From a virus (Duplodnaviria > Heunggongvirae > Uroviricota > Caudoviricetes), in IMG/VR virus record IMGVR_UViG_3300017987_000047: a DNA stretch of 64,000 nucleotides; one strand, given 5' to 3'. The position numbers and the translations under genes were made by a program. Positions within the stretch are counted from its first letter, which is position 1. Every line of letters starts with the position of its first letter. The notes under the pieces are model-generated. The model was not told where the DNA came from, ran no database searches, and worked only from the letters and a program-made list of their open reading frames with translations. Below are positions 3,622 to 58,836 of the stretch, piece after piece.

Positions 3622-4655
3622 TAAATTAAGCTCTGGTAGATATTATCGTATTGTTGTGAACACATTTCTATATTAAATTTTGTTTCAATAGTCTCTCTTC
3701 CGCTCTGTCCTAATTTAATCCTAACGTCCTTATTAAAATATAGATATTTTATTGCGGCTACCAAAGCGTTTAAGTCATCATTAGCAATTAAAATTCCATT
3801 TTTACTATTAACCAATTCGGAAACCTGGTCTATGTCAGTGGCAATAACTGGTTTAGAGCAGACCATGCTTTCCATTAATGAATTGGGAATCCCTTCGTTA
3901 TTAGGGCGAGAAACACAAGTCCCAATATCAAATCTTTTAGTATAGGGGATAATGTTTTGTTTATACCCTAAAAATTGGATATACTTTTCATACCCCTTCG
4001 CGGCTGTTTGTAGCTTTGGTAAGTTTTTAGGGGCAGATGGTAAGACAGAATCCCCACCAATTAAGCAAAGTCTAATATCCTCGAATTCCTTCACAAGAAT
4101 TTTGATGGCTTCGATTAGTAGAATTAAATTTTTTCCCCAACCAAACCGAGAAGACCTCCCTATAACAAACTCATTCCCAGTGTAGACTTCATCTGTTTTT
4201 TGCTCTTTATCTATCTCTTCGAGGTTAATCCCATTATAAATAAGGTGGATAGGCAAGTTGGGGGGTGCTGCTTTTTTAATAATCGGAATAGTCCCTTGCG
4301 CAGACGCAATAACTAATTTCAATTTATCCTTTTTAAGCCTTCCACAAGACCGCGTTCCGTCTGTTCTTTCTATAATGTTTTTAACCCCCGCTTTAACAGC
4401 AGCATCTATTTGAGCTTGTTCGTTATGTACCTGAAAGATATCAGGTTTTATTTTTTTTAATAAGGGCTCTAATTTGTCTTGGGGGCAATAAAGTGCCGTG
4501 CCAATTTCCTTAAAATGTGGTTGGATTTCTGGGCTTGCTGTGGCTATAAAGTAGAATTCATATTTACCTTTCAAGCGGTTTGCAATATTTTTTAGGAAGG
4601 TTTCTATCCCCCCAATGTGAAAATCAAACAGACCAAGAGCAATTTTAGGTTTCAT
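3621..4655 (-). CDS. GT4 glycosyltransferase
   Basis: GGIE, IYNGI, EGIPNSLMES (Ex7E), KPVIATD. Confidence 0.9.
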   Translation of the reverse strand: MKPKIALGLFDFHIGGIETFLKNIANRLKGKYEFYFIATASPEIQPHFKEIGTALYCPQDKLEPLLKKIKPDIFQVHNEQAQIDAAVKAGVKNIIERTDGTRSCGRLKKDKLKLVIASAQGTIPIIKKAAPPNLPIHLIYNGINLEEIDKEQKTDEVYTGNEFVIGRSSRFGWGKNLILLIEAIKILVKEFEDIRLCLIGGDSVLPSAPKNLPKLQTAAKGYEKYIQFLGYKQNIIPYTKRFDIGTCVSRPNNEGIPNSLMESMVCSKPVIATDIDQVSELVNSKNGILIANDDLNALVAAIKYLYFNKDVRIKLGQSGRETIETKFNIEMCSQQYDNIYQSLI

Positions 4656-43946: not shown

Positions 43947-43985
43947 TTTCCCAAACCTTTCCCAAGCCTTTTTCTATCTTTAGAA

Positions 43986-44058
43986 CGCACCCGGTGGGAT
44001 TTGAACCCACGATCAGAGGGTTAGAGCCTCCTGCATTAGGCCACTATGCTACGGATGC
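43986..44058 (-). tRNA. Amber suppressor tRNA (anticodon CUA)
   Basis: GCATCCG/CGGGTGC acceptor; GGAGG-CTCTAAC-CCTCT anticodon arm; GTGGG-TTCAAAT-CCCAC T arm. Confidence 0.85.
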
Positions 44059-44069
44059 ACTTGTTATAA

Positions 44070-51415: not shown

Positions 51416-51429
51416 AAGATATTCCTTAG

Positions 51430-51518
51430 AGGAACGGGTGGGACTCGAACCCACAAATCGCATAAACGACTACTGGTTTTCAAAACCAGGCCCCGCACCT
51501 ACTGGGGTCAACCGTTCC
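51430..51518 (-). tRNA. Atypical tRNA-Ser(UGA)
   Basis: CTGGT-TTTGAAA-ACCAG, long variable arm, normal T arm, non-canonical D arm. Confidence 0.75.
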
Positions 51519-57578: not shown

Positions 57579-58208
57579 TTAATCTTTTAGAAATTCCATC
57601 TCCAGGTGAGGGTAGTGTTCTTCAGCATGACAATTTGCACAAAGTAAAACACATTTGTCAGCCTCTTTTAATATTGAATCCCATTTCCGGGTTAAATTTC
57701 GTGCTGATAATGGAAAATTTTTATGTTTCATATGATGGAGAGTAAGACATCTTAAATCCTTTTCTTCACAGATAGAGCACTCTCCCCCTTTCATCCTAAT
57801 TATTTTTTCTCTTCGATTTTTCATTTTTCTCTTCATTAAGAAATTTCTTTGACAAGTTTTCGAACAATACTTTTTCATTGGAACAAAAACAGGGTTTCCA
57901 CAAAATAAACATGTCCCCTCTTTTGGAAAGCGAGAATGTATTTCAAAAGATATATGTTTTTTTGAGTGGCAATTTACACATAATAAAACACATTTTTTAG
58001 CTTCCTTTATAATAATCTCCCATTTTCTAGATGCTATAACATCTACTGAGAGCTTTAATCTTTTTTGAGCTGGGTCTTTATGGTGAAAAACTAGAGCAGC
58101 TAGGTTTTTTTGGTATCCACATGCGGAACATTTATGGCCTTTAAGTTTGACCAGCTTTAATTTCCTATCTATTTTTTTCTGCTTCCTTTGTTCCTCGTAC
58201 TTCGTCAT
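57579..58208 (-). CDS. Tandem-HNH homing endonuclease
   Basis: Two CxxC..L.[FL]HH..KCVLLC.NCH modules. Confidence 0.85.
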   Translation of the reverse strand: MTKYEEQRKQKKIDRKLKLVKLKGHKCSACGYQKNLAALVFHHKDPAQKRLKLSVDVIASRKWEIIIKEAKKCVLLCVNCHSKKHISFEIHSRFPKEGTCLFCGNPVFVPMKKYCSKTCQRNFLMKRKMKNRREKIIRMKGGECSICEEKDLRCLTLHHMKHKNFPLSARNLTRKWDSILKEADKCVLLCANCHAEEHYPHLEMEFLKD

Positions 58209-58257: not shown

Positions 58258-58504
58258 CTCGCCCGGTGGGATTCGAACCCACGACCCTCGGATTCGTCAC
58301 ACTATAGCTTTCGCTACCACTTACGTGTTTGTGCGCTGGACTTTCTCTTCGCCTTATCCTTTTTGGACTTAGGCGGCCCCCGTCAAGTCTCTACACCTTC
58401 CTCATTTCTAAGGCTTGGCTCGGGATTGCCATCAGCATTACCTGTTAAGGGTTCCCCGAATTTGAGGGCATTGCACGGTACTCTGGCCACTGAGCTACGG
58501 GCGA
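58258..58504 (-). pseudogene. tRNA (probably Asn) interrupted by a group I intron; anticodon and 5' splice region missing
   Basis: TCGCCCG/CGGGCGA acceptor with G73; D arm at 58479-58497; 3' exon AATCCGA..T arm at 58258-58294. Confidence 0.75.
58295..58478 (-). ncRNA. Group I intron core (IC3-like), lacking P1 and half of P2
   Basis: P AAATTCGGGGAA, Q AATCCCGAGCCAAG, R GTAGAGACT, S AAGAGAAAGTCC, terminal G. Confidence 0.85.
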
Positions 58505-58552
58505 TTACTTTTATACGCTAAATTCTCCTTTCATTCTTAAAACTTGTTTTAA

Positions 58553-58632
58553 TGGGCCGGGCAGGATTTGAACCTGCGTAGGCTAACGCCAACGGGGTTA
58601 GCCGAACGCTCTGCCAATTGAGCTACGGATGA
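58553..58632 (-). pseudogene. Chimeric tRNA: Asn-like 5' half fused to long-variable-arm (Leu-like) 3' half
   Basis: Good D and T arms, but acceptor halves (TCATCCG vs CCGGCCC) and anticodon stem halves do not pair. Confidence 0.7.
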
Positions 58633-58655: not shown

Positions 58656-58747
58656 TGGGAGACGGAGGAATCGAACCCCTACACCTATTCCACTGTTCTA
58701 CTTGGGTTAGGTACCAGATCTACAGTCTGGCGAACAGATCGTCTCCC
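58656..58747 (-). tRNA. D-armless 8/4 tRNA-Tyr(GUA)-like RNA
   Basis: GGGAGACG/CGTCTCCC; CCAGA-CTGTAGA-TCTGG; GGGG-TTCGATT-CCTC; A73. Confidence 0.7.
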
Positions 58748-58765: not shown

Positions 58766-58836
58766 CTCACCCGCTGAGAATTGAACTCAGATCAACGGTT
58801 TAACAGACCGCCACATTACCATTATGCTACGGGTGA
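58766..58836 (-). tRNA. tRNA-Asn(GUU)
   Basis: TCACCCG/CGGGTGA; GCGGT-CTGTTAA-ACCGT; G73. Confidence 0.92.

Follow-up and report, generated by a model that had tools for sequence, protein, structure and literature searches.

A probable tyrosine tRNA gene with a pseudoknot in place of the D hairpin, from phages and mobile tRNA arrays

The window analyzed here is a 64,000-nt stretch of the IMG/VR virus record IMGVR_UViG_3300017987_000047. At 58656–58747 on the minus strand lies a 92-base element that an earlier note, made from the sequence, had described as a tRNA-Tyr-like RNA without a D arm; its reading of the strand is correct to the base. The element sits in a co-oriented run of 11 tRNA genes called by ARAGORN, interspersed with small open reading frames (ORFs), among whose products are a peptidyl-tRNA hydrolase (PTH2) and an HD-domain protein. 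The setting looks like that of a large uncultured phage, of which the 64,000 nt surveyed for tRNAs are a part. DNA matches between the window and cultured or metagenomic phages were confined to a group I intron. A 302-aa protein encoded next to the element has one other cluster in a large protein collection, and no relatives of it were found in IMG/VR. Promoter and terminator scans around the element returned nothing above shuffled expectation and nothing convincing as the element's own.

Several other tRNA genes of the window were noted. A group I intron (51.9 bits in Rfam) splits the tRNA-Asn(GUU) gene at 58258–58549 (−). A deletion of ~37 nt has removed P1 and the 5′ splice site, where the intron begins, together with the anticodon arm's 5′ half, so this copy is a dead remnant. 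An intact counterpart with ~95% identity is found on a metagenome contig described below (L006:2770–3105), and an intact intron-less tRNA-Asn lies in the window at 58766–58836. A 209-aa ORF (57579–58208) comes after the intron-bearing gene. At 58560–58632 (−) is a tRNA-like piece with good D and T arms, plus a hairpin in which seven perfect pairs close a 9-nt loop. Its acceptor strands are unpaired, it scores 26.1 bits on the Rfam tRNA model (below 29), and it is missing from the syntenic L006. With introns allowed, ARAGORN fuses the 5′ half of this piece to the 3′ exon of the intron-bearing tRNA-Asn. At 43985–44059 (−) is a tRNA with a CUA (amber-reading) anticodon, labeled Pyl by ARAGORN. 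Finally, a tRNA-Ser(UGA) at 51429–51518 (−) scores above the Rfam tRNA-Sec threshold (49.5 versus 47 bits) and is by its pairing an ordinary 7/5 tRNA.

In the minimum free energy (MFE) fold of the 92-base element (−32.5 kcal/mol, z = −1.8), the acceptor stem is 8 bp long, the anticodon stem 6 bp, and the T stem 4 bp, and the variable region forms a 5+3-bp hairpin. The 8 nt 3′ of the acceptor stem are unpaired in this fold. In the acceptor stem, RNA positions 1–8 (58740–58747) pair with 58657–58664 at all eight positions. The anticodon arm (58713–58731) has five Watson–Crick pairs and a closing G-U, with a 7-nt loop that carries GUA (GTA at 58721–58723), U33, and a purine at position 37 (G37), as expected of a functional tRNA. 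The T arm (58665–58679) combines a 4-bp stem, one pair of which is G-T, with a canonical 7-nt T loop of the TTCRANY type, and the acceptor/T branch amounts to 8 + 4 = 12 bp. The last base is a discriminator A73 (58656). CCA is encoded neither by this gene nor by the eight examined of the window's 11 tRNA genes (0/8). The 8-bp acceptor, 4-bp T stem, GUA anticodon arm, and A73 are thus present as the earlier note had them, both in the sequence and in the fold. A genome-wide 8/4 habit was rejected, as the Ser, Asn, and Cys tRNA genes of the window are 7/5.

What the element lacks is the local D stem-loop of the cloverleaf. Only 8 nt join the acceptor and anticodon stems, a two-base linker (58738–58739, AT here) and a six-base connector strand (58732–58737, RNA positions 11–16). 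The connector is perfectly complementary (6/6 Watson–Crick) to 58693–58698 (RNA positions 50–55), a strand 33 nt downstream in the loop of the variable arm. It was this exact match from which the earlier note had proposed a pseudoknot replacing the D stem. A nested fold that includes the 6-bp connector pairing reaches −29.3 kcal/mol versus −32.5 for the MFE, a cost of only 3 kcal/mol. The variable arm is closed by a 5-bp outer stem (58708–58712 with 58683–58687, 5/5 pairs). Inside this stem lie a spacer (58699–58707), the helix strand, and then TGG (58690–58692) directly 3′ of the helix. An intron or a permuted gene was rejected as an explanation of this layout, since no removal of a single segment restores a D hairpin 5′ of the anticodon arm.

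Taken alone, the six-base match is suggestive only. When the variable region of the element is shuffled, 5% of the shuffles still give a Watson–Crick run of six or more with the 8-nt connector. The element could on this evidence be a decaying tRNA-Tyr pseudogene with its D arm deleted and a six-base match by chance, and tRNA wreckage does lie nearby, namely the intron-bearing tRNA-Asn with its 37-nt deletion and the tRNA-like piece with unpaired acceptor strands. A decision between chance and selection required relatives.

Direct sequence searches did not find them. The exact T-arm plus acceptor string had no match in IMG/VR, the anticodon-arm string matched only ordinary tRNA-Tyr genes there, and blastn of a consensus-like family member against cultured phages gave no match. 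One relative was recovered through the neighboring protein. Alignment of the 302-aa protein and its one distant relative led to L006, a JGI metagenome contig that encodes a homolog with 65% identity. Downstream of the homolog, L006:2563–2653 shares the layout and the GUA anticodon of the window gene. The two genes have different stem sequences, with compensatory changes that extend to the long-range helix. No RNA pattern was involved in recovering this copy, only synteny, so its anticodon and fold stand as independent observations.

Two larger sets were gathered with patterns. The viral pattern specified a tyrosine anticodon loop, a T five bases on, a gap of 30–40 nt, and a T loop, and picked out 99 IMG/VR stretches. 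With the window and L006 included, an 8-bp acceptor stem separated by only 8 nt from a 6-bp anticodon stem is present at 63 loci, which amount to 54 distinct sequences. In 46 of the 54, the connector pairs 6/6 with a strand of the variable region, and TGG directly follows the helix strand in 51. The bacterial set was drawn independently of the viral one, from one genome per prokaryotic species. It contains 67 loci (66 distinct) with the layout; the helix is 6/6 in 59 and 5/6 in 8, and A73 is present in 67/67. In total, 120 distinct sequences share the layout and pair at the same place with different letters. Of 130 family loci, 129 have A73 and 48 encode CCA. The GUA loop, the T loop and, in the bacterial set, TGG were imposed by the search patterns, and conservation of the anticodon is shown independently by only the L006 copy and one in phage crAss001 (see below).

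We then asked whether the helices covary. The 54 viral-set sequences were aligned with plain MAFFT (alignment A3). The criterion for their inclusion had been pairing in the acceptor and anticodon stems; the long-range helix played no part in it. In A3 the long-range helix is 96.9% paired, close to the acceptor (99.1%) and anticodon (98.1%) stems, and six of its six pairs have changed on both sides. The covariation score of the whole structure is 0.747 versus 0.191 for shuffled alignments (0/500), and ≤0.18 with the partners slid. In a MAFFT alignment of the 67 bacterial sequences (A5), the long-range helix is 98.0% paired with five of six pairs covarying, and the variable-arm stem that it crosses is 95.5% paired. 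Across the family, covariation is seen in the acceptor stem (8 bp, in all eight pairs), the 6-bp anticodon stem (five of six pairs), the 6-bp long-range helix, and the variable-arm stem (3–5 bp). The T stem (3–4 bp) covaries in its two outer pairs only; the inner two are invariant, and the outermost is often mismatched in viral relatives. The eighth acceptor pair is GC in 45 sequences of A3, UG in 5, AU in 3, and UA in 1. As this pair covaries, the 8/4 branch proposed by the earlier note holds.

The relatives therefore decide what the element alone could not. The six-base match is more than chance because they keep the pairing with different letters. The long-range helix and the variable-arm stem cross, so this is a true pseudoknot, as first suggested from the single sequence. 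A search for homologs and a covariation check of the 6-bp pairing had been proposed with that suggestion; homologs exist, and the helix covaries in both alignments. Decay of a tRNA-Tyr becomes extremely improbable, with all stems intact, compensatory changes in all helices across 120 distinct relatives, and a score of 74 bits on the family model. We rejected it on the covariation, and the earlier argument for selection over decay is upheld by the same intact stems and compensatory changes.

That family covariance model, R1, was built from A3. Its members score 67–95 bits and canonical tRNAs ≤34 bits. The window gene scores 74.0 bits (E = 1.6e-18), partly by construction, as it is among the 54 training sequences. 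It carries the features of the family, a 6-bp helix followed by NGG and enclosed by a short variable-arm stem, and has diverged in sequence from the family consensus. Its peculiarities are G37, where nearly all relatives have A37, and the linker AT rather than TT. Across the 120 sequences the linker is TT in 79 and AT in 11, and its second T is ≥90% conserved in the viral alignment.

The variable arm required a partial revision. The enlarged arm holding the partner strand is as the earlier note drew it, but the 5+3 hairpin is corrected to a short outer stem of 3–5 bp. An outer stem of 3–6 bp occurs at the same place in 115 of the 120 relatives. The proposed inner CCA/TGG stem does not hold, being paired in 30.6% of alignment cells, which is the shuffled level, with zero compensatory changes. 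TGG is instead a nearly invariant unpaired motif across the family. It follows the helix in 109 of 120 sequences, and NGG does so in 113. The bacterial pattern demanded TGG somewhere in the variable region (66 sequences), whereas the viral pattern left it free, and there TGG is still ≥90% conserved. The spacer is A-rich family-wide (52% A, 25% T), and its CCA is unpaired with TGG in the relatives. The GG of this motif is probably the equivalent of G18-G19.

Standard tools do not see these genes. ARAGORN in default mode missed the window gene and found 0 of the 54 viral-set sequences. In mitochondrial mode it did not recover the 92-nt gene and reported a different, 65-nt fold. A search of 601 bases with the general tRNA model of Rfam (RF00005, gathering threshold 29 bits) gave no match to 58656–58747, even with E relaxed to 10. 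Among Rfam models, tRNA-Sec (RF01852) matches best, at 24.7 bits versus a gathering threshold of 47 and with the D-arm columns deleted in the alignment; family relatives score 24–32 bits on the same model. The element equals tRNA-Sec and allo-tRNA in the lengths of its branch (8/4), anticodon stem (6 bp), and D-type helix (6 bp), which would explain this weak match. Membership in tRNA-Sec does not follow, as the score is below 47, the anticodon is GUA and not UCA, and a local 6-bp D stem with a tetraloop is lacking. The Rfam Tymo_tRNA-like model gave 13.8 versus 40 bits. With standard finders missing the gene, tyrosine appears absent from many phage and array tRNA sets.

The surroundings of the relatives bear on what the gene is for. 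ARAGORN tRNAs are present at 58 of 62 viral loci, with at least 15 tRNAs at 15 of the 62, and 13 of the 62 also carry a canonical tRNA-Tyr. In Bacteroides phage crAss001 (MH675552), the covariance model found an unannotated 7/5 pseudoknotted tRNA-Tyr at 4141–4235 (+). This copy lies in the gap between tRNA-Lys and tRNA-Phe of an annotated array that lists no tRNA-Tyr. Bacterial matches come mostly from Planctomycetota chromosomes, plus Alphaproteobacteria MAG contigs, and the planctomycete isolates with the gene are Schlesneria sp. T3-172, Lacipirellula limnantheis I41, and Bythopirellula polymerisocia Pla144. At five scanned array-bearing planctomycete loci, the gene is within arrays of 27–39 tRNA genes. 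These arrays (L130, L160, L184, L141, L120) each fit within about 5 kb and cover almost all amino acids. Among 30 bacterial arrays with at least 15 genes, 29 have no ARAGORN tRNA-Tyr and the pseudoknotted gene is present instead; Tyr is by far the isotype most often missing from these arrays. A published tRNA-array survey lists Tyr among the rarest isotypes in arrays, and such surveys make no mention of a gene of this kind. Schlesneria has one re-wired copy, plus a canonical tRNA-Tyr elsewhere on the chromosome in a Thr-Tyr-Gly-Thr operon. In this genome the Rfam tRNA model gives array tRNAs lower scores than it gives the tRNAs scattered over the chromosome. Phages and mobile arrays, rather than the core genome, have the pseudoknotted gene as their tyrosine tRNA. 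Given the canonical tRNA-Tyr genes in Schlesneria and at 13 of the 62 viral loci, it is not always the sole tRNA-Tyr.

The fold is also not restricted to tyrosine. Among 111 stretches listed, at least 15 carry the same fold with a UCU (Arg-like) anticodon and at least 3 with UAU (Ile-like), counts that are lower bounds from a scan whose pattern excluded G34. Examples from IMG/VR are L219, L200, L202, L235, and L248 for UCU and L199, L258, and L302 for UAU. In these versions (A)TGG follows a long-range helix of 5–6 bp, and the discriminator varies (T, A, G). The covariance model found one further non-Tyr case, an Arg-like gene of 85 nt (L070:7970–8054). Patterns for other G34 anticodons found no instance of the fold. 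The idea of a tyrosine-only fold was rejected on the UCU and UAU versions.

Three related genes were seen along the way. Ten bases downstream of a family member, L030:727–826 (−) has the same acceptor, connector helix, NGG, and T arm, with a 19-nt insert replacing the 7-nt anticodon loop, and scores 51 bits on the family model. The same phage array, which holds a pseudoknotted Tyr gene, includes an allo-tRNA-type tRNA-Ser(GCU) at L030:434–523 (−), in which the acceptor stem is long, the T stem short, and the 5-bp D stem capped by a tetraloop. At L053:1382–1462 (−), ARAGORN missed a Ser(CGA)-like gene. In its MFE fold, five post-acceptor bases pair with five bases of the variable region, around the anticodon arm, and the gene may be another long-range-helix variant.

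We conclude that the element is probably a functional tyrosine tRNA (GUA) with a non-cloverleaf core, widespread in phages and mobile tRNA arrays, a conclusion drawn from sequence comparison. The parts read by the translation machinery are kept, namely the 12-bp 8+4 branch, the canonical T loop, the 7-nt anticodon loop with U33, and A73. The six bases after the two-base linker pair with six bases of the variable arm, crossing the short variable-arm stem, to form a D-like helix. This 6-bp helix is predicted to stack on the 6-bp anticodon stem at the site of the D stem, with the strands swapped. The connector enters the 5′ strand of the anticodon stem directly, and stacking is therefore expected only with the connector in the place of D-stem positions 22–25. 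The variable-loop strand would then take the place of positions 10–13, running toward the elbow, and the trailing invariant GG would dock on the T loop as G18-G19 do. The CCA-adding enzyme presumably completes the 3′ end, the host TyrRS would charge the tRNA through A73, G34-U35, and the variable arm, and EF-Tu would bind through the 12-bp branch. The tRNA would decode UAY codons for the phage.

A tRNA-shaped RNA need not decode. The element could instead be a decoy, which the earlier note had raised beside a nuclease-resistant tRNA, or a regulator, serving as bait for tRNA-targeting defense nucleases or as a sponge for a synthetase or modification enzyme, with the altered core barring ribosome entry or preventing cleavage. 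Some phage arrays do hold a canonical tRNA-Tyr alongside, the copy at L030:727–826 with its 19-nt insert indicates that the scaffold can exist without a normal anticodon, and only three anticodons (GUA, UCU, UAU) were seen within reach of the search patterns. We consider this idea unlikely. The gene fills the tyrosine slot of otherwise complete arrays, and this favors ordinary decoding over a pure decoy. The features for charging and EF-Tu binding are kept, including the 12-bp branch, A73, and the CCA encoded at 48 of 130 loci, and neither a perfect 8-bp acceptor stem nor a conserved discriminator would be required of a decoy. Another role would be that of a processing or punctuation element without adaptor function, in which RNase P and RNase Z cut the array transcript at the acceptor/T minihelix. 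Such a role would suit a co-oriented run of tRNAs and small ORFs where the element has no convincing promoter or terminator of its own. A minihelix would suffice for it, leaving the conserved anticodon arm, the covarying core helix, and the invariant GG unexplained, and we consider it very unlikely.

If the gene is a decoding tRNA, the wiring itself calls for a reason. Compaction was rejected as its purpose, as the Arg-like L070 gene is 85 nt long versus 72–74 nt for ordinary array tRNA-Arg genes found by ARAGORN. Our leading guess is that the wiring is kept for escape from host factors that read the ordinary D arm. The idea is attractive because canonical tRNA-Tyr co-occurs in some phages and few anticodons are used. 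More broadly, and tentatively, phages and arrays might maintain a second tRNA architecture, for Tyr(GUA), Arg(UCU), and Ile(UAU) at least. It would persist through invisibility or resistance to factors that read the D arm or elbow, such as defense nucleases, yet remain usable by synthetase, EF-Tu, and ribosome. We hold this broader proposal to be possible and well short of likely.

The pseudoknotted gene without a D hairpin is, judged by sequence and covariation, a new structural variant of tRNA, of which the window holds one intact member. If this is right, it would be a natural and widespread exception to the cloverleaf rule in bacteria and their viruses, and the L-shape could be built with a different strand topology. 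The apparent tyrosine gap would bias studies of phage codon use and of arrays as backup or anti-defense systems. For tRNA engineering, the fold could serve as an orthogonal scaffold that is already at hand. Folding, charging, and resistance to tRNA-cleaving defenses are directly testable, as cultured systems carry copies, namely crAss001 on Bacteroides intestinalis and the three planctomycete isolates. A literature search found no description of such a tRNA, which is absence of evidence only, with most subscription journals outside the search. A 2024 paper (PMC11551756) treats all known bacterial tRNAs as cloverleaves.

The nearest comparison is with canonical class II tRNA-Tyr(GUA) (RF00005; for example, Schlesneria L187:322–403). 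Both have a loop of the CU-GUA-AA type, A73, mostly G1-C72, a long variable region, a canonical T loop, and a place in tRNA operons or arrays. Only the canonical tRNA has a D hairpin (a 3–4-bp stem with GG in the loop), a 7/5 branch, and a free-standing variable hairpin. The window gene is 8/4, and its variable-arm loop supplies a strand of the core helix and the GG.

The (8/4) allo-tRNAs and bacterial tRNA-Sec resemble the element in the 12-bp branch with its longer acceptor and shorter T stem, the 6-bp anticodon stem, the 6-bp D-type helix, the long variable arm, and occurrence in phages. They differ in having a local D stem-loop with a tetraloop. The window gene shares the 8-bp acceptor and 4-bp T stem of the (8/4) allo-tRNAs without this tRNA-Sec-like D stem-loop, and has GUA rather than the UCA of tRNA-Sec. 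The 8/4 and 9/3 tRNAs of Mukai et al. 2017 (PMC5389517), which include phage Ser and His tRNAs, all have a local D stem-loop, and the 8/4 form is reported there for Ser and His, not Tyr.

Mitochondrial D-armless tRNAs, such as metazoan mt-tRNA-Ser(AGY), are alike in the absent D hairpin and the short connector between acceptor and anticodon stems. Those tRNAs have an unpaired replacement loop, a shrunken and flexible body, and adapted partner proteins. A 2020 review of non-canonical tRNAs gives D-armless forms for mitochondria only. In the pseudoknotted family the connector is paired, as covariation indicates, the RNA is full-sized (about 85–94 nt) with a canonical T loop, and the genes are in phages and bacteria. 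The element thus falls outside the mitochondrial class.

The tymovirus 3′ tRNA-like structure and the tRNA-like domain of tmRNA are similar in achieving tRNA mimicry by non-cloverleaf connectivity. The pseudoknot of TYMV builds the acceptor arm, and tmRNA is without an anticodon arm. In the window gene the acceptor, T, and anticodon arms are ordinary, and the D region alone is knotted.
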